Below, one piece after another: positions 7,662 through 25,774 of a stretch of 32,000 bases of DNA. The notes beneath the pieces are model-generated. The model searched no databases and was not told the DNA's origin. It worked only from the letters and a program-made list of their open reading frames with translations. The stretch is taken from NCBI RefSeq assembly GCF_900079115.1, contig NZ_LT549890.1, positions 1,950,001-1,982,000 of the forward strand, written 5' to 3'. The DNA is from Saccharolobus solfataricus (lineage in GTDB: Archaea > Thermoproteota > Thermoprotei_A > Sulfolobales > Sulfolobaceae). The position numbers and the translations under genes are program-made. Every line of letters begins with the position of its first letter. The first letter of the stretch is position 1.

Positions 7662-8096
7662 ATGTCTTGGGAAAAGAGTGGAAAAGAAGGAAGCCTATTG
7701 AGATGGTATGACGTAATGGAAGCTGAGAGATACGAGTATACAGTAGGTCCAGCGGGTGAACAATTCTTTAACGGATTGAAACAAAATAAGATTATAGGAA
7801 GTAAGTGTAGTAAGTGTGGAAGAATATTCGTCCCCGCTAGATCCTATTGTGAACACTGTTTTGTCAAGATAGAGAATTACGTGGAAATAAATAAGGATGA
7901 AGCTTACGTGGATTCGTATACAATAATTTACAATGATGATGAAGGTAACAAATTAGCACAGCCAGTGTATATTGCCCTAATTAGATTTCCTAATATTGAA
8001 GGAGGATTACTATGTTACGCTGAAGGAAATGTTAAAGTAGGAGCAAAAGCTAAGATTTTGAGCTTCCAGTGGCCTTTACGAGTCAAGGTTGACTAA
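7662..8096 (+). CDS. DUF35 family protein (second paralogue)
   Basis: 144 aa. CSKCGRIFVPARSYCEHC zinc ribbon. The ATG directly abuts the TAA of the preceding gene (taaatg). Confidence 0.75.
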   Translation: MSWEKSGKEGSLLRWYDVMEAERYEYTVGPAGEQFFNGLKQNKIIGSKCSKCGRIFVPARSYCEHCFVKIENYVEINKDEAYVDSYTIIYNDDEGNKLAQPVYIALIRFPNIEGGLLCYAEGNVKVGAKAKILSFQWPLRVKVD

Positions 8097-11551: not shown

Positions 11552-13367
11552 TCCAGATAAGGAATGGATAGAGAACAGTAACGTATATAAGTTCATGATT
11601 AAAAGGAACCTTAATAGATTAGAAGACTTCGTAAGGTATACATATGAGAATCCTGAATTTTGGGACCAGTTTGTAAAGCTTATTGGAGTGGAATTTAAAG
11701 AACCTTATGCCAAGGTTTTGGATCTGAGCAGAGGAAAACAATGGCCACAATGGTTCATAGGAGGGAAGTTAAACATTGGAGATCAATTACGTGATAGTTC
11801 TGATGTGTTCATTAAGTGGATGGATGAAGACCTCAACACCAGAACTGTAACTTATTCTCAAATACTAAATGAGAGCAAGTCTATTGCAAGTTGGTTAAAG
11901 AAGATAGGTTTGAAGAAGGGAGATAGGGTCGCTATTTACATGCCAATGATCCCGGAAATAGTATCAGTAATGCTGGGAGCAATAAGGGTAGGGACGATAA
12001 TCGTACCCTTATTTTCCGGATTTGGTCCAGAGCCCATAAGGGTTAGAGTGGAGGATAGTGAGGCGAAAGTAATCTTCACAGTTGATAAGAGCATTAGAAG
12101 AGGAAAAGAAGTCGACATGTTAAAAAATCTAGAAGGACTAAACGATAATATAACTAAAGTAGTATTGAATAGAGGAGGCACTAAGGGTGATTTTTATGAG
12201 TATAAGGATGTCATAAAAACTGCTGGAGATTATGTAGAAGATACCAGTACTGAAGACCCAATGATGATAATTTACACTTCTGGAACTACTGGAAAACCCA
12301 AAGGATGCGTTCATACTCACGATGGGTTTCCAATAAAAGCTTCAGCTGACATTTACTTCCAATTCGATTTGAAAAATGGAGAGACGTTAATGTGGGTTAC
12401 TGACATGGGGTGGATGATGGGACCCTGGATGGTATTTGGATCACTCTTACTAAACGCTAAAATGGGAATGATTGAAGGATATACAAGTGGGGAAGTCCTA
12501 CAGAAATTCGTTGAAGATATGAAAGTTGATGTTTTAGGGGTCTCAGCTAGTCTAGTTAGGGCACTGAGAAGTCAAGGCGAAGTTAAGCTAAACGTTAGGT
12601 TAACTGGAAACACTGGAGAACCAATTGATTCGGAAAGCTGGTATTGGTTATTCAACGCCAGTGGAAAGAACCCCATAATAAACTACTCTGGAGGTACTGA
12701 AATCTCTGGAGGTATTTTGGGGAATTACGTTATAAAGAAGATAAAGCCATCTTCATTTAATGGACCTTCTCCGGGAATTAACGCCTCAGTATTTAATGAG
12801 GAAGGAAAAGACGCCCCACCAAATGTTGAAGGAGAGTTAGTCGTATTAAGTGTTTGGCCAGGTATGACTAGAGGATTTTGGAGAAACCCGGAAAGGTATA
12901 TAGAGACCTACTGGTCAGTGTGGAAAGATGTATGGGTTCATGGAGATTTGGCTTATAGAGACGAAGAAGGGTATTTTTACATCGTAGGTAGGAGTGATGA
13001 TACGATAAAGGTTGCTGGGAAGAGAGTAGGTCCGGCTGAAATCGAAAGCGTATTAAATTCATTCCCAAACGTAGTGGAATCAGCATGTATAGGAATACCT
13101 GATCCGATGAAGGGGGAGAAAATAGTCTGTTTTGTAGTCTCTAAGGTTAGTGGGATTGAAAATCAATTAATAGAATACACAGAGGATAAACTGGGTAAGG
13201 CATTTGCACCATCTGAAATAAAGATTGTTAAGGAGCTACCTAAGACTAGAAATGCTAAAATAATGAGGAGATTGATAAGAGCCATATATTTAAATAAACC
13301 CTTAGGAGATATATCCTCACTGGAAAATCCGTCAGCTTTGGAGGAAATTAAGAAGGCCATCAGTTAG
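11541..13367 (+). CDS. AMP-forming acyl-CoA synthetase (ACS-like)
   Basis: 608 aa. [11 protein letters not shown], the C-terminal [15 protein letters not shown], and N-terminal ACS-like WFIGGKLNI. Overlaps iorB by 11 nt. Confidence 0.8.
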
Positions 13368-13825
13368 CTGATCTCTTCCTCTTTAATTTGTTTTAATGCC
13401 TTAAGAGCCTCATTAACGTGATTAGCTGGATTCATCTGCGAATTGTATATATGCCTTATTATTCCCTTCTTATCAATAACAAACGTTATCCTTGCTGGTA
13501 ATATGAAGCCTTTTGCCCCATAAAGTTCTCTTATTTTCTTATCCGGATCACTAACTAGGATAAACGGGAGTTTATATTTTTCCTTGAACCTTTTGTGAGA
13601 GTTTATATCATCTGAACTAACTCCTATAACTACAACATCATAATCCTTAAGGAGATCCCAATTGTCTCTAAATGCACAAGCTTCCCTTGTACACCCTGGT
13701 GTATCATCTTTAGGGTAGAAGTAAAGGACTATATTATGTTTCCCTATATAATCGGAAAGGGAAATCTTCTCACCATTATCTGCTATCCCCTCGAATAAAG
13801 GTGCCTTATCCCCCACTTTTACCAT
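13364..13825 (-). CDS. bcp: Peroxiredoxin, Bcp (bacterioferritin comigratory protein) type
   Basis: 153 aa. [17 protein letters not shown] contains the Prx peroxidatic Cys and the Bcp-type CxxxxC. Its stop overlaps the convergent ligase stop by 4 nt. Confidence 0.85.
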
Positions 13826-14565
13826 AATATAGATATATCTAACTATGGTAAAAAACTTACCTTATAAATCTTTCAGATTTTTCGTAGTTTGCTGAAAAAT
13901 ATCACTTAGAAGTTAAACTCGGGAGATTCAGTTACCCATTGTAAATTTACTTTATTTCAAAGATTCCTACGAAATTAACTAAATGAAGGCGACTAACTTG
14001 CAGAGAAATACAATTAGCATTTATAGGAAAATCGTTACACTTTTACGTTACGTTAAAAATATATAATAAATCTTTCCTGATTAGATGAAAAATGTTTATT
14101 GATAAGCTATAATATTAAGAAGTACAATGAAAGATATTTATAAATACATGGATAAATATTTTGACTTTTTATGATAAGGGAATTTCCTAAAACTACTATA
14201 CAATTATCAATGCTAACATTTTTACAACTATATTGTTTACAAATTACATTCCACAAAGAAGACTTGAATCACCCTTAAACTCCTATCCTTAACTCCTTAA
14301 ATTCTCTTTCATAGACGCTTTTTACCTTAAATAGTTCCCACCTATTAGTTATCAGTTTATAATTGTGTTTTATAAGCGTAATTCAAAATTTCGAAATGTT
14401 TTAAAATATTTCACTTTCTTGCTTTATGGGCTTATTGAATTTTCTTAAAGAGTTAAGAGGTATTAGAAATCTAAATTGAATATATAATCATTAGTTGAAA
14501 GGAAGAGATAATACTAGCTCATCGGAAAAAATTCAACAGATCAACTAAGCATCATCTCTTTTTTC

Positions 14566-15309
14566 TTAAATCACACCTTCTAAATTCTTCCTTATGTAAT
14601 CATCAAATTCCTTAGGCTTAGGCATTTTAACTTCTCTAATTCTATTTACGAATTCATCTTTATTGTTTATTCTAAATAAACTATTGAATCTCTTTTCAAA
14701 ACCTATTGTAGAACTAGGTTTTCCGCTTATACCAATACCACATACTGAACCAGCAGTATGTGCTGGATAAATTTCAACATAGTCAGGCAATTCTTTTAGT
14801 TTAGCTAGACTGTAGTATAAATTCTCCTCTGCGTTTTCCCCGCCTATATCAATTCTTCCCAGACCACCCACAAATAATGTGTCCCCAGTTAATATAGCCC
14901 ACGGTTCATTCCAACTTTCGTCTCTTCTTCTATCATATATTAGAACTGAAATACTATCTGGAGTATGTCCGGGAGTATGAAGTACCTTTATTTTAACATT
15001 TCCAGCCTTTATTTCCTCTCCATTCTTAACCCTTTCCACCTTGAATTTGACCTGCGATAACTCATGATAGTAAACGTTAGCATTAGTTAAAGACGCCAAT
15101 TTCTTAGCACCAGATAGGTGATCAGCATGAGTGTGTGTATCTATTATATAAGCTATTTTCATATCCCCTAAATCTCGGGCAAGCTCAATAATTTCATCTA
15201 CCATTTCATACTTAGGATCCACTACAAACAACTCTCCAGCTTGAGTGCAACCGAAAACGTAAGTAGCGCAACCGCCACTTTTGCTTATAATCTGCCTGAA
15301 TATCATCAA
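14566..15309 (-). CDS. Metallo-beta-lactamase-fold hydrolase (glyoxalase II / persulfide-dioxygenase-like)
   Basis: 247 aa. HxHxDH motif (THTHADH), later HTPGHTPDS and a GDTLF aspartate. Size and motif spacing match the glyoxalase II/ETHE1 branch. Confidence 0.7.
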   Translation of the reverse strand: MMIFRQIISKSGGCATYVFGCTQAGELFVVDPKYEMVDEIIELARDLGDMKIAYIIDTHTHADHLSGAKKLASLTNANVYYHELSQVKFKVERVKNGEEIKAGNVKIKVLHTPGHTPDSISVLIYDRRRDESWNEPWAILTGDTLFVGGLGRIDIGGENAEENLYYSLAKLKELPDYVEIYPAHTAGSVCGIGISGKPSSTIGFEKRFNSLFRINNKDEFVNRIREVKMPKPKEFDDYIRKNLEGVI

Positions 15310-16052: not shown

Positions 16053-17153
16053 ATGATGAATAGACAGTTTATTTTGTTTACAATATTAGTCTTTTTTACA
16101 GGATTATATCTAGGAACTCTAAGAATAATTATTCCGGTATTTGAGAAACAAATAAACATCTCAATAATGTTAAGCCTATTATTACCCTTGGTATCCTTTG
16201 GGTTTGTAAAAGGCGCATTTAACTTCATTGCGGGAAAGCTCTCTGATGACTTGGGAAGAAAGAGAGTACTCGTAATAGGCTGGTTAGTGGCGTTGATTTC
16301 AGTCCCTTTATTTCTCTCAATTAACATATATACAGTCATCATTATTTCGATTCTGCTTGCAATAAATCAAGCTTTGACGTGGACTACTACCGTCACTTCA
16401 CAAATAGACATTAGCGGTAAATTAAGAGCAGGCTTCGCTACTGGAATAAATGAAATGTCGGGATATTTGGGAGTCTCTTTTGGAAGTCTCTTCGCTAGTT
16501 ATTTATTTAAGCTAAGTAGTATTTTCATCGGAATAATTTGCTTGATAGCATTAATTTCTTCCTTTAACGTAATTGAGACTAAAACATTAATACCAAATGC
16601 CACTTTATCGAAAAAGGAAAATAATCATATAAATTACTTTTCCATTACTAAAATAAGCATTGCAGGACTCCTAGAGAAGTTTGTAGATTCAGCATTCTTT
16701 ATCTTGATACCCACATTTCTATTATTACAACATTATACGTTATTTTTGATAGGAATAACTGTATCTAGCTATACGTTTACTTGGTCACTTTCGCAACCAC
16801 TATTCGGGTACTTGGCAGATACTTACAACAAAAGAAGACTAATACTTGTAATAGGTTTTTTATTAATGTTTGTTGGCTTTATAAAATATTCTGAACTTCC
16901 GATTTTATTTTCAATAATAGAAGGTATTGGTATGGGCATGATCTATCCTAATTTAATAGCTTTTGTTAACGATAAGATTAACGAGAGTGTAAGAGGAAAA
17001 GCATTAGGCTATTACAGGTTATATAGGGATAGTGGATATGGTGTGGCTGGCTTACTACTACCATTACTTTACTCGTTTTATGGATACGAATATACTTTAT
17101 TGATAGTAGGAATATTGCAAGTTGTAGCTCTCTTACTAGTAGTAAGATCTTAA
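16053..17153 (+). CDS. MFS transporter
   Basis: 366 aa and highly hydrophobic with roughly 10-12 predicted helices. The motif-A-like GKLSDDLGRKRV lies between helices 2 and 3. Confidence 0.7.
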   Translation: MMNRQFILFTILVFFTGLYLGTLRIIIPVFEKQINISIMLSLLLPLVSFGFVKGAFNFIAGKLSDDLGRKRVLVIGWLVALISVPLFLSINIYTVIIISILLAINQALTWTTTVTSQIDISGKLRAGFATGINEMSGYLGVSFGSLFASYLFKLSSIFIGIICLIALISSFNVIETKTLIPNATLSKKENNHINYFSITKISIAGLLEKFVDSAFFILIPTFLLLQHYTLFLIGITVSSYTFTWSLSQPLFGYLADTYNKRRLILVIGFLLMFVGFIKYSELPILFSIIEGIGMGMIYPNLIAFVNDKINESVRGKALGYYRLYRDSGYGVAGLLLPLLYSFYGYEYTLLIVGILQVVALLLVVRS

Positions 17154-17341
17154 TCTCTCATATTTTCACAAATAAAGTATTTCAACTCTTGATAAAAATA
17201 ATGATGATCACCATAATCCCCAGACGGACACCGAAATATTAAGGTATAAGGTGCTTAAGGTAGATTTTCCTAAAGTACTGACTATACTTGAATTTGATCT
17301 ATATTACTTACTCAATGGAGGTAGGCTATTAGATGTAATAC

Positions 17342-17644
17342 TTATAAGTGCAGTATTCCCACAAGCCCTCCCGCTACAATCATAGCAACGGTAAGGAAAT
17401 ACGCTAATAATCTGGTCTTAGTGTAGGCGTATTTACCCATGATCCTCTTATTGCTTATTAATATACCCACTAGTACTGCTGGTATTGCAATTACTACGGG
17501 TGATAGAGATAATAGGGTTAAGGCGAAGTTAATTATGGAAGAGTATTTGCCGAGCATTAGGGAAACTATTAATATGGCTGGTATTGACTCAATAATGTAA
17601 ACCTTCACAGAGTTTTTGTAGTTGTTTTTCCCTAAAGCTTCTAG
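17342..17644 (-). pseudogene. mntH: Nramp/MntH divalent-metal transporter, C-terminal fragment (cut off by the IS insertion)
   Basis: The minus-strand frame ...LLEALGKNNYKNSVKVYIIESIPAILIVSLMLG...VGILHL continues in frame from the N-terminal fragment once the IS and one duplication copy are removed. The 119-aa ORF in the track (17342..17701) is a chimera that starts inside the IS terminus. Confidence 0.7.
17639..17644. repeat. Target-site duplication, left copy (TTCTAG; identity extends to TTCTAGTAG)
   Basis: TTCTAGTAG occurs at 17639-17647 and again at 18792-18800, directly flanking the GC-rich element. Confidence 0.7.
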
Positions 17645-18791
17645 TAGCACTTTACGGTTTTCTCCTCCTCTTGAACAGTTTTTTGATCCCACCCGCCTCA
17701 CGGTAAATACTTTTTATCAATCTGGCCAACCTTTTGGCCCCGAGCATCAGACCCGTGGAGTACTTGAAGTATTGAACAACGAGGAGGGAGAGAGCCTTCA
17801 AGGCCACGAAGCCTGAGTTCCTAACCCAGGTCAAGAAGGACCCACCCTCGAGTCCCAAGGCCTTGAGCTCCCTGATCAAGACCTCTATGTCCCAACGGTT
17901 CTCCCAGGTCGTTATGATATCTTCAGCCGTGTCGTTAAGGTCGGTGGAGAAGAAATACCTCCTCCCGTAACCCTTATAGTCATCTATAACAAGTAACTTT
18001 ATGGGAGTCCCCAAGTACTCTACCAGGTACTCCCCTTGGGGGAACTCGCTAACGGGCACGGATCTGCCACCCTCGACGACTCGCGCGCTGGACTTGAGTT
18101 CCCCCACAGTATTCCCTTGGAGAGTCCTCGAGTTCACGTACCATGAGTCGAAGACCCTAGCTTTTACATTCAAACCTGAGAGGGAGGAGAGAAACTCCAA
18201 GAGGGCATCTATCTTGGTCTTGAACTTCACCTCCTCACCCCTACGCTTGAGCTCCTCTTCCACCTTTCGGGGTATGTAGGCAATTATGTGGATCACGTAG
18301 ATCTGGTTGTTCACCAGATCCTTGACGCCAATCACAAGGAGTTGGATCGCGGGTTCGAACCTCTTGTGCGCCCTACAGTAGAAGATCTGCGCCCCGTTTC
18401 TGGAGACCGGCATGGCCCTAGCGTAGAGCTTGTGGTCGTGGGTGTCGTCCACTATGAGAAGGACAGGATGATCCCCGACTAACTTCTTCACGACCTCGAT
18501 TAGTTTGGCTTGAGCTGCCTTGTCCAAGTTATTCAGTACGGTCTCGTAGTCCATCTCGGCCTCTTGAGCTATCTCGGTAGCATTTCTTCCCACAACCGCC
18601 CCCAAGAGTAGCCTCTTGGCAACGTCCTTCCTCGTTCCAGTCATGGATAGTATGACCTCGTTAACTGCCTTTTCCAATGCCTTATAGTACTCCTCCCTCG
18701 TCAATTCTTTGGTCATACCAAAATTAAAGGTTCTAATTTTAAAAAGTTTTTATGGGCCTCTTGAACTGCCAGGATTTTCCGATAAATGCTA
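17645..18791 (-). mobile_element. Insertion sequence of about 1147 bp, ISC1217-like (family name from memory, unverified)
   Basis: The imperfect terminal inverted repeats are TAGCACTTTACGG (17645-17657) and the reverse complement of the right end, TAGCATTTATCGG, matching 10/13. There is a single 354-aa transposase ORF. Flanking direct repeats are 6-9 bp. G+C jumps sharply: by hand count 36/60 at 18001-18060 versus 15/60 at 19701-19760. Confidence 0.8.
17652..18716 (-). CDS. IS transposase (DDE-type presumed)
   Basis: 354-aa ORF filling the element. It has an N-terminal HTH-like segment (RNATEIAQEAEMDYETVLNNL). LLIVDDTHDHK and SWYVNS resemble DDE transposase blocks. Confidence 0.75.
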   Translation of the reverse strand: MTKELTREEYYKALEKAVNEVILSMTGTRKDVAKRLLLGAVVGRNATEIAQEAEMDYETVLNNLDKAAQAKLIEVVKKLVGDHPVLLIVDDTHDHKLYARAMPVSRNGAQIFYCRAHKRFEPAIQLLVIGVKDLVNNQIYVIHIIAYIPRKVEEELKRRGEEVKFKTKIDALLEFLSSLSGLNVKARVFDSWYVNSRTLQGNTVGELKSSARVVEGGRSVPVSEFPQGEYLVEYLGTPIKLLVIDDYKGYGRRYFFSTDLNDTAEDIITTWENRWDIEVLIRELKALGLEGGSFLTWVRNSGFVALKALSLLVVQYFKYSTGLMLGAKRLARLIKSIYREAGGIKKLFKRRRKP

Positions 18792-19667
18792 TTCTAGTAG
18801 TCCCCACGCACTACTTAGAGATACAACTATTAGGGTTAAGAACCCAGCGCTTATTAACGTTATTCCAAATATGTAATGAACACTCCCTAAGTTATATAGT
18901 AATTGGGCCGGATCAATAGGATCTATATTACCGATCGATGTTCCTATCATTTCAGATAGTACTATTATCAGTTCAGTTATTATAGCCCCCAGTAATGTCT
19001 CTATGCCTATCCACGACGTCTTTTTAGAGTTATCAATACCTATCTTAGAATACTTAATTGCTGTAGCCGAACTTTGATAAACCAACATACAAGGTGGAGT
19101 TACCACAGCACCAACGTTTACTGCGATGAAGAAAAGGAAATTCTTAGACGTAGAGAAGTAGAAGACGTCTTGTCCAGTAAAGCTCAGTTTAGGCCCAACC
19201 ATAATTAAGGCTGATAATAATAGAATTACGGAAATCACTACTAAATATTTTTCAGTTATTTCATAATTTTTAGTTAACACCACTAGAACGTGAAGGATGA
19301 AGAATACTATCAAGCCGAATAGAGGATTGACACCAATTAAGTAACACCCAATTGCAATTCCCGCATACTCACTTAGATATGTAAAGAAATCAACTAAGAA
19401 TATGGGGAAAATAGATAAAATGGATATTCTGGTAGAGTAATGTTCTCTGATAAGCTCTCCAATACCCTTCCCAGCTATGGCACCCAATCTCCCTGAAGCC
19501 TCTTGTATTATGAAGATAGGAAGAGATAATAACATCACGAACCATATTAGCTTATACCCATATTCTTCTCCAGTTGATAACCCTCCTAATATACTCGCAG
19601 CATCGGCATCTGCCAATAGTGCTATCCAAGCTGGTCCGAAGAGTTTTGCAGAATCCCTTATGCTCAA
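18789..19667 (-). pseudogene. mntH: Nramp/MntH divalent-metal transporter, N-terminal fragment (292 codons, ends at a stop created at the IS junction)
   Basis: The N-terminal FGPAWIALLADADAASILGGLSTGEEYGYKLIWFVMLLSLPIFIIQEASGRLG matches the Nramp family signature region (DPG/N-type first helix). The frame terminates with ...SSAWGLLE followed by TAG, whose first base is the IS terminus. Confidence 0.75.
18792..18797. repeat. Target-site duplication, right copy
   Basis: The same TTCTAG(TAG) as at 17639. Confidence 0.7.
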
Positions 19668-19991: not shown

Positions 19992-20558
19992 ATGCAAGAG
20001 AAACCCCAAGAACCAAAGGTAGTCGGAGTAGAAATCTTGGAAAAATCTGGGTTAGATATCAAAAAGTTAGTAGATAAACTAGTTAAAGCAACAGCTGCAG
20101 AGTTCACCACATATTACTACTATACCATATTGAGAATGCACCTAACTGGTATGGAAGGAGAGGGTCTTAAGGAAATAGCTGAGGACGCTAGGCTTGAGGA
20201 TAGACTTCACTTCGAACTAATGACTCAAAGGATTTATGAACTGGGAGGAGGTCTACCTAGAGACATAAGGCAGCTTGCTGATATTTCAGCTTGCTCCGAT
20301 GCGTATTTACCAGAGAATTGGAAAGACCCTAAGGAGATATTAAAGGTTTTGTTAGAAGCTGAGCAATGCGCGATAAGAACTTGGAAAGAAGTATGTGATA
20401 TGACGTATGGAAAAGATCCTAGAACTTACGATTTAGCGCAGAGGATACTTCAAGAAGAGATAGAGCACGAAGCGTGGTTCTTAGAGTTACTATACGGAAG
20501 ACCATCGGGTCATTTCAGAAGAAGTTCACCAGGGAACGCTCCATATTCCAAGAAATAA
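19992..20558 (+). CDS. dps: Dps-like ferritin-superfamily protein (DNA-binding protein from starved cells-like; oxidative-stress iron sequestration)
   Basis: 188-aa four-helix-bundle protein with di-iron ligand-type motifs (EDRLHFELM ... EEIEHEAWF). I recognise it as the Sulfolobus solfataricus Dps-like protein (SsDps). Confidence 0.85.
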
Positions 20559-20610: not shown

Positions 20611-20937
20611 ATGCTAGTCAGAGTGTCTAGCTTATCAGACTTGGAAGAGAAGAAACCAAGAAAATTCTCCATCAACGGCATAGAAGTAGTCATAGTTAGG
20701 GTTGGTGATAAAGTGTTTGCTATAGAAGCATATTGTCCTCATAAGGGAAGGAATCTGGAATATGGAGAGGTAGAGGGATATAAAATAAGGTGCGATTTAC
20801 ACGGATATGAATATAGTCTTGAAAACGGTGAGTTGATATTTAATCCTTATGGTAAAACGTCAGGGTGGTACTTCTCACCTAACTTAAGGATTTACAAAGT
20901 GGAGATAAAGGGCAAAGATATTTTTATACAAATTTAA
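20611..20937 (+). CDS. Rieske [2Fe-2S] domain protein
   Basis: 108 aa. CPHKG ... CDLHG (CxH-x16-CxxH) is the Rieske cluster-binding motif. A GGTGA Shine-Dalgarno-like element at 20599-20603, 7 nt before the ATG, suggests co-transcription with dps. Oligo-T tracts at 20574-20579 and 20590-20594 could give partial termination. Confidence 0.8.
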   Translation: MLVRVSSLSDLEEKKPRKFSINGIEVVIVRVGDKVFAIEAYCPHKGRNLEYGEVEGYKIRCDLHGYEYSLENGELIFNPYGKTSGWYFSPNLRIYKVEIKGKDIFIQI

Positions 20938-21470
20938 ATTTCAAATTCTATTGATCTAGCGTCTTGCACAATTAAACTGCAATAGGTTTCCTTCATTTCT
21001 TGCCTACATTCACCTCTATTCTTGATCTCGGGTATTTCCTTTAACTCCCTTACTTTCTTGGAAATCTTATTGTAATCGTCTTGTGGGATTATTGAAGTTA
21101 TTATTTTGACCCCCTTATTTTTAGCTGCTAAAGCGGCAGCAACACTCATACTCTTCCTCCCTCCGGTTATATCTAAATAGTCCCCCTCACCTAACTGTTT
21201 TTCAACGAATTCCCTAACTTTCCTTAAGTCATCTTCACTGTAAATATCTTCAATATCAAGTGGATGCTCACTAATTTCTACCTTAGGGAATTTCTCTTGA
21301 ATACAACATACAAACATTAATCTTACTATTCTCCATGCCTTCTTTACTTCTGCATTAGATGTAGTCACTACTCTTACTTCATCGATGTTTTCTCCCTTTT
21401 TTACTAGGTAAAGAAAAGATTCTATTACTCCACCCGGGGATGTACCTAATGTAGCTACTAGTTTAACCAT
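20934..21470 (-). CDS. crn1: Stand-alone CARF-domain protein, probable cyclic tetra-adenylate ring nuclease (Crn1-type)
   Basis: 178 aa, essentially one Rossmann-like domain. It has the N-terminal strand plus loop VATLGTSPGG (residues 5-14) and the second signature loop DITGGRKSMS (residues 100-109). These are the two hallmark CARF ligand-binding motifs. There is no fused HEPN, nuclease or wHTH effector domain. I believe it is identical or near-identical to S. solfataricus Sso2081. Confidence 0.75.
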   Translation of the reverse strand: MVKLVATLGTSPGGVIESFLYLVKKGENIDEVRVVTTSNAEVKKAWRIVRLMFVCCIQEKFPKVEISEHPLDIEDIYSEDDLRKVREFVEKQLGEGDYLDITGGRKSMSVAAALAAKNKGVKIITSIIPQDDYNKISKKVRELKEIPEIKNRGECRQEMKETYCSLIVQDARSIEFEI

Positions 21471-21493
21471 GTTATGGATAAAAAGTTCAAGTT

Positions 21494-21506
21494 AGTATTT
21501 ATTTTT
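21494..21506 (-). promoter_or_regulatory. TATA-like box for the CARF gene (leaderless or short-leader transcript)
   Basis: The minus strand reads AAAAATAAATA, spanning about -36 to -26 relative to the ATG at 21470. It lies in the 35-bp gap after the upstream gene stop. Confidence 0.35.
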
Positions 21507-22009
21507 TATTGTCTTTTGCCTCTACCTCTGAGGAATAGTACTAAACCAACTAATAGCACAATTACACCGATAATAGCTAGAAAGAAACCAAGGCCAGTAT
21601 ATAACGCAACGTTTATCAATGAGGACGCAAACTCTTGGCTCAAGACGTATTTCACTGAAATGGGAGTAGTGAGATTGTTTACCATTATAGCGTCATATTT
21701 AGGACTTAATAACGCTAATATATATCCTTTTTCTGCAATTTGTGGAACTGACTGGTTCGTCCCATTTACTTCCTGTAATATCTTTAACACTTGTCCAGAA
21801 CTGGTATTGTAAAGTAATATTGATAGTTTGCTGGGAACTCCTAAGTCCTGCGATGACCCAGGCTGTAAAGTAGTTGGAGATGCTGTACTTAGTGTGTTAA
21901 CTATTTTAATGAGTCCAGAGGAGGCTAAATACCCTCCTATAAAGAATAGTGCAATACCAACTATTAATATTATTGCCCCTACTATTAGAACTGTTTTACC
22001 TATAGCCAT
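21506..22009 (-). CDS. Membrane protein, bitopic ends with an extracellular middle domain (hypothetical)
   Basis: 167 aa. N-terminal TM (VLIVGAIILIVGIALFFIGGYLA) and C-terminal TM (LGFFLAIIGVIVLLVGLVLFL). Several N-x-S/T sequons lie between them. Preferred over the overlapping plus-strand 112-aa ORF. Confidence 0.55.
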   Translation of the reverse strand: MAIGKTVLIVGAIILIVGIALFFIGGYLASSGLIKIVNTLSTASPTTLQPGSSQDLGVPSKLSILLYNTSSGQVLKILQEVNGTNQSVPQIAEKGYILALLSPKYDAIMVNNLTTPISVKYVLSQEFASSLINVALYTGLGFFLAIIGVIVLLVGLVLFLRGRGKRQ

Positions 22010-22051
22010 AATTTAATAAAGTTTAAAGGAAATATTAAGTCTTTTCAAAAG

Positions 22052-22981
22052 TTATATTACGTCTAACGGATTAGTGGACACGAACTCAATATTTTTTATA
22101 ACATACTTGCTGACATTTACGCTCCCGAAGCTCTTCAACTCCTTATGAACTTCGAATGTGACTATCGAAGGATCACCCAATTGATATAAACTACCAGGGT
22201 TTATTGCGATAGTCTCGCCTACCTTATCCATTGATGTACTTTCGTGAACGTGACCATGAAGTGAAATAATAGGTTGAAATTCAGTAATTAAATCAAGTAC
22301 TGCCTTTGAACCTACATGGGACTTCCTCAAACCGACCTTCGCATTATCCAATTTTGTGTTTAAAGGGGGCATGTGGAAGTTCATAATTAATCTTTCCTTA
22401 TCAGCGTCCTTAAGTAACGATTTACCTTTTATGTATAATTCAGAGTCTGGAATTTCTCTGTATGAATTACCTATTGGAGAACCAAAACCTAGTGAGACTA
22501 TCTGAATTTCCTCTAGATTTATAACGTTTTCGTTAATCAGATTACTGCCATAATTCTTAAGAATGGAATCCAATTGCGGAATATCTCCATGTGCTGGGGA
22601 CCAAAATACCTTTTCTAAACGAAAAATTTCCTCAGCTATTTTAACCCATCTTGACATTTGCTCAGATGCTTTCTCAATAACTATTTTCTCCAGTTTACTC
22701 TTATCACTCTTTATATCCTCAATAACCTCTTTTTTGTCTACTACTATATATTTCCCAGACCTTAACGCATCTTCATTAAGGTTATTCAAATTAACCTTTT
22801 TACCGTTTAAAAAATATCTTCCTCCGATATCCTCTACAAAGAGTATTTCTTTAGCAATTAACCCCCCACTTATAATGAGAAAGTCGACTCTCTTCGATTT
22901 TGCAATATTTAGTGACCTCTTAAATGAATACTCCGAACCATGAAGATCGGTGAAGAATCCTAACTTAAATTTAAAGACCAT
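22052..22981 (-). CDS. Metallophosphoesterase (calcineurin-like), divergent motif set
   Basis: 309 aa. N-terminal FFTDLHGS (DxH motif) and C-terminal LHGHVHES (GHxH motif). The middle GD and GNHD/E motifs are not canonical (ISGG, PAHGD). Confidence 0.6.
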   Translation of the reverse strand: MVFKFKLGFFTDLHGSEYSFKRSLNIAKSKRVDFLIISGGLIAKEILFVEDIGGRYFLNGKKVNLNNLNEDALRSGKYIVVDKKEVIEDIKSDKSKLEKIVIEKASEQMSRWVKIAEEIFRLEKVFWSPAHGDIPQLDSILKNYGSNLINENVINLEEIQIVSLGFGSPIGNSYREIPDSELYIKGKSLLKDADKERLIMNFHMPPLNTKLDNAKVGLRKSHVGSKAVLDLITEFQPIISLHGHVHESTSMDKVGETIAINPGSLYQLGDPSIVTFEVHKELKSFGSVNVSKYVIKNIEFVSTNPLDVI

Positions 22982-22995
22982 CCTAACTTAAATTT
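22957..22995. repeat. 16-bp direct repeat (ATCCTAACTTAAATTT x2, period 23) straddling the phosphoesterase start codon
   Basis: Copies at 22957-22972 and 22980-22995, read directly. Confidence 0.8.
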
Positions 22996-23116
22996 GCAAT
23001 TACAAATTAAAAAATTAATTAGTCCCTTTTCTCCTTCTTTTCTAATACTTCTAGCAAGTGAACCCACGCCAAAAAACACGGATCCACTTGTTGCTTATTA
23101 TTCTTCTTTTCCTCGC

Positions 23117-23890
23117 TCACTTTGACACCCTCCTTAGAAAGCTCTTTACTCTTTCCCAAGCATCTTCAGCTGCTTCCTTATTATACGAACGCCCTCTATC
23201 ATTAAAGAACGCATGATACGCTCCGGGGTAAATTTTGAGTTCTAAATCCTTCTTATATTTTATTATAGCGGAAATTAGATCTGGTAACCCCGCATCTATT
23301 GGCGGGTCCTCTCCAGCATATAGACCTAATATTGGCCCCTTTATCTTCTGGATTGCCTCCAATGGTTGTGGATTTCTGCCGTAAAAGACTATTGTCCCAT
23401 CTAGTGGTACTTCGGTCGCTAACTGAAATGCCAAACCCCCACCCATACAGAAGCCCATACTGACTATCTTTTTAACACCTTGTGAGCTTACGTACTCGTA
23501 AGCCTTAATAGCGTCCTTTATCATCTGTTCCTCCGTCTTTTGTCTATTTAAGACCAATAACTCAGCTACTTTTTTACCTTTTTCATCTAACGCTGACATT
23601 ATTTGTTGATAAGAATTTGGATCATTCCTCTTCTCTGGTGGTATACTCCATACTTTCATCATTACATTTTGAATGTTCCCCTCGTTTAGAACATCCTCAT
23701 TCCTAGTGTATAATTGAGGAGCTAGTGCCATATAGCCCTCATTTGCTAACCTTCTTGAAATATCTTTTATATTATCATTAAGACCCCATATTTCATGTAT
23801 TACTATTACTGCCAATTTAGGATTTTCTGGGGTAGCTAGGAAAGCCCTTATTTTAGCTCCGTCTGAATCATAAAATATCTCCTTTTCCAT
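23117..23890 (-). CDS. Dienelactone hydrolase family protein (carboxymethylenebutenolidase-like)
   Basis: 257 aa. VIHEIWGLN, nucleophile motif GFCMGG, and C-terminal YPGAYHAF. This gives the DLH Cys-His-Asp arrangement. Confidence 0.8.
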   Translation of the reverse strand: MEKEIFYDSDGAKIRAFLATPENPKLAVIVIHEIWGLNDNIKDISRRLANEGYMALAPQLYTRNEDVLNEGNIQNVMMKVWSIPPEKRNDPNSYQQIMSALDEKGKKVAELLVLNRQKTEEQMIKDAIKAYEYVSSQGVKKIVSMGFCMGGGLAFQLATEVPLDGTIVFYGRNPQPLEAIQKIKGPILGLYAGEDPPIDAGLPDLISAIIKYKKDLELKIYPGAYHAFFNDRGRSYNKEAAEDAWERVKSFLRRVSK

Positions 23891-23953
23891 ATTAACTTTT
23901 ACTGGTGAATGGTTTAAAAGTTAACTATCTATTTTTGTTAGATAAAAAAATAA

Positions 23954-25774
23954 TTAACTTTCAATTAAGCCAGAATATAGCAACAAATCGTAAACCATTG
24001 CGTACGCATTATATGTTCCTGGACCTGTGACATAGTTCCATCCATAATGGGCTGGAAGTGGATTATTTCCACTAGTTATTGGTATCCAGGCAACCTTACC
24101 GACAAAATTGCCTAGTGGAGATTCTATTATACCTTGATACGAAATGTGATACAATGCGAAGTTGAGTGCACCTAATCTGGTACCAGCTAAGGCTACCATT
24201 GCAGCAGTCATTGGTGCAGCTCCACTGGTTCCATACCATACGAACAATTGACCTTGAAATACTAAAGGCAGACCGAAACCGAATTCTGGAATATTATAAC
24301 CCCCAGCTGAGACGAATGCGATATCTGGATAAGTCCTTACAATAACGGGAGTAAATGGAATCAGTGAAGTTATTTCATAAATTTGTGCTGGATAAACAAC
24401 ACTATTACCTCCAGTACTATAATCCCACCCACTAATTTCCACAATACTACCATTAGACGACGCATTAAGAAATATCCCGCCAACTGACGTTACGTAGGGA
24501 TCAGACTCAGGGTACCATATCGTATTATATGTTCCGATATGGAAATTAGGAGGCGGGTGATCACTCTCATATCCCCAGTCTCCAGAGGCTGCTAAGACAG
24601 AAATTCCTTGCGCTGCAGCTTGCAACATTATGTTATGAATCATGTCTAACATTGCTGGATAGTATGCTGCTAGAAAACTTTCTGGAACGGTTACAGAAAT
24701 TGAAATGACGTTAGGATTTAAGTAGTTAACCATGTAATAATACTCATAATAATAGTTTAGTAAATTGCCCACTAGCTGGGGACCGCCCACGTAACCGTTA
24801 CTGAAGACTATTGTAACGTTAGCTGCTGGTGCGAAGGCACCAGACCATTCCGCATCAAGCTCATTCTCTCCTGATTGCCCTCCAGTTGTAACATTCCCGA
24901 AATATATAACGTTTAGATGACCAGTTCTAGGTATACCATAAAGTTGCCAAAAACTATAGATGTCTGATACGTTTACAAAGGACTCAGGTACTCCCTCAAT
25001 CGCAATATTACTACCTCCGCCAGTATAACCTCGCTCATAGGCTAAGGTAAAGTTAAAATATTGCTCTATTGTTATCGGTGAAATTATGGCTTTTGAAACC
25101 AGTCCGCTTTGGGCTTTAACCATAGGTAAATGCCATGTTTGTGTAACCACGTTAACTACCTTGGGATCTAGACTATCTATCCCAACTACTCCTAATACAT
25201 ATTTTCCAATATTAAATGGTAATGATGGAGTAACGTTATTTGAGTAGTAGTAAAATGGACCAATGTTCTTAATTCCTAGTAGACCAAACCAATAGAGGTT
25301 CTTGAATGGATAGTAGTAAACGTTAATGTAAGTGTTGAATGCTTTCTCTATATTCCCCACAGTTCCACTAAATACTAGTATTAAACCATAATTACCTAAA
25401 AATTGTAAGTTATAAGATTCCAGATACTTTATTAGTGAGTTTACATAGGACCTTGAAGGATAATAATATTCTCTAAACTGTGATGGAGTCAACCAGTGAT
25501 GGAACTGTGGGGCAGAGAGGTAAATTTCGTTAAGGTATGATTGTAAAGAGGCTAAATTAGTGAAATTTAAGAGAACTGCTATGTATAAGGTTTGACTACT
25601 GTTGAGGGGTTCTACAAATACTGATCCGGGAATTATTGTGTATTGTGGAGAAGATGTTTGTATATAATAGTATTGTGCTTGACTTTGCGCTATAATTGTT
25701 AGGAAAGTTGTAGTGCTTAAAATCAACACTAGAAGTAACATTACCCTTTTTAATATTACATTCTTACTTTCCAT
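23954..25774 (-). CDS. Secreted sedolisin/kumamolisin-like (S53) serine-carboxyl peptidase
   Basis: 606 aa. N-terminal signal/anchor (VMLLLVLILSTTTFLTIIAQSQA), a pro-domain-like region, GENELDAEW (the E/D of the S53 triad context) and GTSGAAP (catalytic Ser motif). Confidence 0.65.
   Translation of the reverse strand: MESKNVILKRVMLLLVLILSTTTFLTIIAQSQAQYYYIQTSSPQYTIIPGSVFVEPLNSSQTLYIAVLLNFTNLASLQSYLNEIYLSAPQFHHWLTPSQFREYYYPSRSYVNSLIKYLESYNLQFLGNYGLILVFSGTVGNIEKAFNTYINVYYYPFKNLYWFGLLGIKNIGPFYYYSNNVTPSLPFNIGKYVLGVVGIDSLDPKVVNVVTQTWHLPMVKAQSGLVSKAIISPITIEQYFNFTLAYERGYTGGGSNIAIEGVPESFVNVSDIYSFWQLYGIPRTGHLNVIYFGNVTTGGQSGENELDAEWSGAFAPAANVTIVFSNGYVGGPQLVGNLLNYYYEYYYMVNYLNPNVISISVTVPESFLAAYYPAMLDMIHNIMLQAAAQGISVLAASGDWGYESDHPPPNFHIGTYNTIWYPESDPYVTSVGGIFLNASSNGSIVEISGWDYSTGGNSVVYPAQIYEITSLIPFTPVIVRTYPDIAFVSAGGYNIPEFGFGLPLVFQGQLFVWYGTSGAAPMTAAMVALAGTRLGALNFALYHISYQGIIESPLGNFVGKVAWIPITSGNNPLPAHYGWNYVTGPGTYNAYAMVYDLLLYSGLIES

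Follow-up and report, generated by a model that had tools for sequence, protein, structure and literature searches.

The locus described here raises the question of what a small CARF-domain protein does when no effector is attached to it and no CRISPR-Cas genes surround it. The window, i.e., the whole 32-kb stretch of DNA that was analyzed, contains on its minus strand an ORF (20934..21470) that starts with ATG and encodes a product of 178 aa plus a stop codon, the end coordinate in the ORF list including the stop; the N-terminus of the product reads MVKLVATLGTSPGG. The sequence-only reading had taken this ORF for Sso2081, a ring nuclease of the Crn1 class that linearizes cA4, and the guess proved exact. 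A PDB sequence search returned 7YHL, the “CRISPR system ring nuclease SSO2081”, which is a crystallized protein identical to the ORF product at 178/178 residues (E = 4e-114), and ranked after it the mutant or tagged entries 7YGH, 7YGL, and 8HTW, followed by the S. islandicus ortholog 7Z55. The profile HMM search with CARF and Crn1 models that had been suggested gave 227 bits for the NCBIfam equivalog NF040581 (cas_Crn1), the cut-off being 125, with residues 3–176 aligned to model positions 1–178; the published conversion of cA4 to A2>P, which likewise concerns the identical protein, bears out the assigned function. The PADLOC model CARF_m13 matches the ORF with 261 bits, and the CARF_m13 clade is the literature assignment of Sso2081. 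The identical protein occurs in an identical neighborhood in the complete S. solfataricus genomes CP160827.2, where crn1 is located at ~2.135 Mb, and CP050869.1. We regard it as practically certain that the ORF is Crn1 (Sso2081), the stand-alone CRISPR-associated ring nuclease of Saccharolobus solfataricus.

Sso2081/Crn1 was the first ring nuclease ever described, and it ends the type III CRISPR alarm by cutting cA4. Athukoralage et al. purified a cA4-degrading activity from S. solfataricus lysate, in which a band of ~18 kDa was Sso2081. The recombinant protein is metal-independent and converts cA4 into A2>P, with A4>P as a minor intermediate, as observed by TLC and LC-MS, at a rate of ~0.2–0.8 per min at 60 °C (0.23 per min in Athukoralage et al.). 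Among the mutants, S11A is slower, R105A/K106A is inactive, and the single R105 or K106 mutants are impaired. In view of such inactive mutants and of the crystal structures with bound ligand, a contaminant is an unlikely source of the published activity. When Sso2081 is added to a reconstituted reaction of Csm (III-D) and Csx1, the activation of Csx1 is abolished, while no activity of the protein is seen on linear RNA. Kinetic modeling indicates that Sso2081 resets signaling only at low viral load. No in vivo crn1 knockout phenotype is described in the publications consulted. Since the protein is the characterized founding member of the Crn1 family, the novelty of its identification in the window is nil; its function, mechanism, and structure were all published before, and no new biology is added. 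Every assay suggested earlier, i.e., product analysis, mutants, Csx1 shut-off, and dimer structures, is already in print for the identical protein.

The same biochemistry decides whether the protein acts on its ligand as an enzyme or as a sponge, both of which had been offered as explanations for a CARF domain with nothing to regulate. As a non-catalytic sponge or sensor, Crn1 would bind cA4 without cutting it. The affinity is high, with a KD of about 50 nM, and such tight binding combined with slow turnover means that sequestration would add damping at high enzyme-to-ligand ratios; furthermore, the structurally closest CARFs, those of Can2 and Card1, bind cA4 without cleaving it. However, A4>P and A2>P have been found by direct product analysis (published LC-MS and TLC), point mutants lose activity, and Crn1 contains a conserved GTS motif I, by which CARFs that cleave are distinguished from those that do not. 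A purely binding role is therefore extremely improbable and is refuted by the published product identification and mutants; the enzyme half of the earlier alternative stands, and the sponge half does not.

The sequence carries the two CARF hallmark loops that had been noticed about 90 residues apart, both of which are present with a spacing of 93. The motif I loop TLGTSPGG (aa 7–14; 21429..21452, minus strand) is read from the sequence, and its role is taken from crystal structures and mutants, in which G9-T10-S11 places the ribose 2′-OH and contacts the scissile phosphate. The motif II loop DITGGRKS (aa 100–107; 21150..21173, minus strand) is defined by sequence, conservation, and published mutants; within it, R105 serves in substrate binding and K106 in the stabilization of the transition state. 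The crystal structures of Sso2081 cover apo, phosphate-bound, cA4-bound, and cleavage-intermediate states and reveal a butterfly-shaped CARF homodimer with a basic pocket above the dimer axis. The CARF domain has been modeled as aa 1–125 and is followed by what has been described as a “40 residue C-terminal insertion”. This helical insert comprises helices E and F at about aa 126–165 (20976..21095, minus strand; boundaries approximate, from the literature) and contains Y133, C155, and C164. The two helices, together with Y133, swing about 12 Å and lock the ligand in; the S. islandicus ortholog shows the same behavior.

The absence of an attached output domain, as claimed from the letters, was upheld, since Pfam finds only CARF-type families on the ORF; PF09623 reaches 40.9 bits against a cut-off of 23, and the Card1 CARF family stays under its cut-off. 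No HEPN, PD-(D/E)xK, or credible HTH domain was found by Pfam, the HTH_40 match at E = 0.4 being noise, and a C-terminal HEPN ribonuclease domain of the Csx1/Csm6 type has no match in the protein, which ends at residue 178. The description of the product as little more than a single CARF domain agrees with these CARF-only matches; nevertheless, it needs correcting in that the last ~50 residues form a functional lid with Tyr133, even though the lid is not an output domain. Residues ~126–178 are present and align across the family in an alignment of 23 homologs.

A C-terminal extension of this kind also invites a reading of Crn1 as a regulator similar to Csa3 or Sso1393, in which the CARF domain would be coupled to DNA binding. 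The paralog Sso1393 does carry a wHTH domain, and the Csa3 proteins of S. solfataricus bind cA4. Nonetheless, the HTH_40 match to Crn1 is not significant, and the C-terminal 50 residues are the helical lid rather than a wHTH. Such a DNA-binding role has next to no probability and is refuted by the crystal structures.

The mechanism of Crn1 as a ring nuclease is as follows. Two CARF (Rossmann-like) subunits assemble into a homodimer, in which a single composite pocket is located over the dimer axis. Cas10 of the type III-B and III-D complexes, which are encoded elsewhere in the genome, produces cA4, which binds in this pocket, and the C-terminal helical inserts then swing inward and cover the bound ligand. 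In the in-line attack, motif I (G9-T10-S11) positions the ribose 2′-OH while R105 holds the ring, and K106, with the help of Y133, stabilizes the transition state. Cleavage of cA4 requires no metal and proceeds in two steps, of which the first yields linear A4>P and the second two A2>P. Since these linear products no longer activate the HEPN ribonuclease Csx1, the antiviral state is reset; moreover, as Crn1 is slow, it clears residual signal and does not abolish immunity.

The conservation of the family was assessed in an alignment with 37–100% identity, whose 23 homologs come from Sulfolobales, a Methanomethylicia MAG, and metagenomes. G9, T10, E17, D75, D100, T102, G103, G104, R105, and K106 are invariant in 23/23 Crn1 homologs, S11 is kept in 22/23, and Y133 is found in at least 90%. 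R172 varies among the 23 homologs; in Sso2081, this residue makes a contact with adenine. Unexpectedly, the alignment of these small Crn1 proteins, which reaches down to 37% identity, also displays conserved cysteines: C55, C56, and C164 never vary, and C155 is retained in at least 90% of the members. Of these, C155 and C164 are located within the movable lid or next to it. The main text of the structure publications on Sso2081 and its S. islandicus ortholog makes no mention of Cys, cysteine, or disulfide. It may be speculated from the sequence that C55, C56, C155, and C164 are joined as a disulfide staple or bind a metal, which would render lid closure and cA4 clearance redox-sensitive. An additional layer of control on Crn1, exerted through these cysteines or through the block of genes upstream of crn1, is considered improbable.

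Cas Pfam domains are absent from the about 30 ORFs of the 32-kb window, PADLOC reports on the window only Crn1 and one weak generic metallophosphoesterase match, repeat searches reveal neither a CRISPR array nor spaced repeats in the 32 kb, and tRNA and Rfam RNA scans of the window returned nothing. The nearest cas module in strain P2, comprising Cmr and type I-A genes around SSO1986–SSO2004, is presumably separated from SSO2081 by roughly 80 genes. The earlier statement that no cas gene or CRISPR array occurs in the 32 kb is thus confirmed by Pfam, PADLOC, and repeat searches in agreement, and, since none is linked to crn1 in the window, the tie of the gene to type III systems rests here on published biochemistry and not on context. 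Type III loci elsewhere in the genome, whose presence was to be checked, are documented in the literature as III-B and III-D loci of S. solfataricus.

The neighbors were rightly described as oxidative-stress and housekeeping genes, the former being a Dps-like ferritin (SSO2079; 19992–20558, plus strand), a Rieske ferredoxin (SSO2080; 20611–20937, plus strand), and a peroxiredoxin (13364–13825), and the remainder being metabolic. SSO2079 and SSO2080 show the strongest peroxide induction of all S. solfataricus genes, at 37- to 41-fold; SSO2081 is not named in the main text of the peroxide-induction publication. The Dps-like and Rieske genes look like one operon, with a gap of 52 nt and a GGTGA Shine-Dalgarno motif before the Rieske gene. 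The pair converges on crn1, such that the stop-codon regions overlap by 4 bp (20934–20937), and no obvious T-rich terminator is located 3′ of the Rieske stop codon. On this arrangement, read-through from the Rieske gene under oxidative stress would give RNA antisense to crn1. The convergent overlap with crn1 is confined to Saccharolobus.

Several further features of the window differ among strains and species. The stretch of 647 bp at 13917–14563, which lies between the peroxiredoxin gene and a gene of the metallo-beta-lactamase fold (14566–15309), contains no ORF of at least 90 aa and no Rfam match; its counterpart in S. shibatae consists of just 251 unrelated bases, and no second copy is found in the window. 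The counterpart of the metallo-beta-lactamase-fold gene in CP050869.1 (locus positions 16719–17938) is cut short at 184 aa and has a DDE_Tnp_1 transposase gene behind it, which points to an extra IS insertion that is absent from the window and from CP160827.2. An Nramp/MntH metal-transporter gene (17351–19667, minus strand) is split by a 1,144-bp ISC1217 element at 17648–18791, whose transposase occupies 17652–18716 and which is flanked by a perfect 9-bp target-site duplication, TTCTAGTAG, at 17639–17647 and 18792–18800. The insertion was defined by mapping the intact S. tengchongensis Nramp onto the window, where residues 1–292 correspond to 19667–18792 and residues 290–388 to 17647–17351, and the duplication was read at the junctions. 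The gene is intact in S. shibatae and S. tengchongensis, with products of 374 and 390 aa, respectively. Maaty et al. (2009) listed SSO2078 and SSO2076 as two separate peroxide-induced ‘metal ion transporters’, and the two halves of the Nramp gene appear to be these entries.

On the other flank, crn1 is the last gene of a co-directional series. The block at 21506–25774 on the minus strand contains genes for a sedolisin-like protease, a dienelactone hydrolase, a metallophosphoesterase, and a two-TM protein (165–167 aa), after which crn1 follows; TenA is also encoded in the same direction upstream of crn1. In the window, the metallophosphoesterase (22052–22981, minus strand) has 309 aa, and the two-TM protein (21506–22009, minus strand) has 167 aa with hydrophobic ends and matches no Pfam or PADLOC family. 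The block is kept in S. solfataricus, S. shibatae, S. tengchongensis, and Sulfolobus sp. A20; it survives at Crn1 identities as low as 59% and also next to a different downstream flank. None of the other loci surveyed has it, including those of S. acidocaldarius, Stygiolobus, Metallosphaera, Acidianus, and Vulcanisaeta. Because the block is limited to one clade, it is read as inherited synteny and not as a family-wide partnership. In Stygiolobus, a phosphoesterase with 36% identity lies about 8 kb from crn1. At the edge of the block in S. shibatae B12, a TnpB/OrfB_IS605 (Cas12f1-like TNB) gene abuts a TenA gene shortened to 145 aa, the TenA of the window having 206 aa.

The gap between the membrane-protein gene and crn1 (21471..21505, minus strand) spans 35 bp according to the ORF coordinates, as had been stated, and reads AAAATAAATACTAACTTGAACTTTTTATCCATAAC, with the ATG following directly. 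The TATA-like box that had been proposed in it, AAAATAAATA, is found at −35 to −26 from the ATG (21496..21505, minus strand) and represents a candidate promoter, with a spacing to the ATG that suits a leaderless or near-leaderless transcript. Of the 29 window genes, 15 have a TATA-like hexamer at −38 to −21, compared with 6% of random 18-nt windows, which makes the crn1 box plausible, although this enrichment alone is not proof. A Shine-Dalgarno motif of the GGTGA type is missing from the 35-bp gap, and such a motif is present at the internal operon genes of the window that start at 7662, 20611, and 29233. From these sequence features, it is plausible that crn1 has a promoter of its own and is independently transcribed, with little or no leader on the mRNA. 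The additional suggestion of constitutive expression fits the purification of Sso2081 from uninfected lysate.

The upstream arrangement bears on a further explanation, according to which Crn1 would be an ordinary sensor for the two-TM protein and the metallophosphoesterase, all three being encoded in one operon. The metallophosphoesterase gene, the two-TM gene, and crn1 are arranged head-to-tail with gaps of 42 and 35 bp, and the order metallophosphoesterase, ~165-aa membrane protein, and crn1 is kept in S. shibatae, S. tengchongensis, and Sulfolobus sp. A20. However, the block is missing from all other surveyed Crn1 loci, crn1 has the TATA-like box and lacks a Shine-Dalgarno motif, the membrane protein has no Pfam or PADLOC match, and Crn1 alone is fully active in vitro. 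A sensor role for these upstream partners is thus very unlikely. It is also speculative that the metallophosphoesterase of the block might process the A2>P product of the ring nuclease.

The stand-alone position of the ring nuclease gene was compared with that of its orthologs in other genomes. A contig search with the single Crn1 protein, based on exact 8-residue patterns, yielded 149 pattern matches and no relative, and a contig profile search with the family alignment yielded 13 loci. Enough flanking DNA to judge was available for 17 species contexts. CRISPR arrays or cas homologs lie within 10 kb of small crn1 in 6/17, namely in two Metallosphaera, Acidianus sp. HS-5, Ca. Aramenus, a Methanobacteriota MAG, and Vulcanisaeta. 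One Metallosphaera crn1 adjoins Csx1, RAMP genes, Cas6, and an array of ~95 repeats; arrays of 63–95 repeats were detected beside the Metallosphaera and Acidianus orthologs with a direct-repeat finder and a k-mer scan. Tandem Repeats Finder, applied to the gene-free stretches beside these orthologs, returned nothing, since CRISPR spacers differ from one another. No CRISPR-Cas was found near crn1 in the other 11 of the 17 contexts, six of which were judged by tblastn with Sulfolobales cas queries plus an array scan, by which divergent cas genes can be missed.

The location of some orthologs inside CRISPR-Cas loci fits a CRISPR-ancillary origin of crn1. In the resulting picture, crn1 is a CRISPR-ancillary gene that works in trans and has frequently been relocated from the loci that it serves. 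The ring-nuclease census in PMC12409355 looked only within 6 kb of type III loci; since most small Crn1 genes, the founding member included, are found outside CRISPR-Cas loci, censuses confined to the vicinity of such loci would undercount them, and this one would miss Sso2081 and the majority of its orthologs. Ring nucleases set the outcome of type III CRISPR immunity, i.e., recovery versus dormancy and death, and this principle was discovered in Sso2081. The sequence-only reading, having reached both the right gene and the right function, can serve as a positive control.

Compared with known systems, the ORF is the same gene as Sso2081/Crn1 of S. solfataricus P2 (UniProt Q7LYJ6; PDB 7YHL, 7YGH, 7YGL, and 8HTW), from which it shows no difference. 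Sis0455 of S. islandicus REY15A (PDB 7Z55/7Z56; CARF_m13) shares with Sso2081 the CARF domain and the ~40-residue C-terminal insert. With a full-length match of 261 bits, the same key residues, and an RMSD of about 0.8 Å, it is an ortholog and not an identical protein; the effects of mutation differ as well, as S11 matters more in Sso2081, whereas K106A is more severe in Sis0455. Sso1393/Sis0811 (large Crn1, CARF7) resembles Sso2081 in its CARF dimer, its metal-independent conversion of cA4 to A2>P, and its use of Ser11 and a central Lys, but contains a C-terminal wHTH where Sso2081 has the helical lid; moreover, Sso1393 is about 10-fold slower than Sso2081 and is located inside a CRISPR-Cas region, where it adjoins Csx1. 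AcrIII-1/Crn2 (DUF1874), which occurs in viral and cellular forms, shares with Sso2081 the cA4 reaction, the off-switch logic, and a mobile element over the ligand; in contrast, its fold is unrelated, it is about 60-fold faster, and it is used by viruses as an anti-CRISPR. Finally, the CARFs of Can2 and Card1 are attached to nuclease effectors; they have neither the GTS motif I nor the motif II arginine and leave cA4 uncut.
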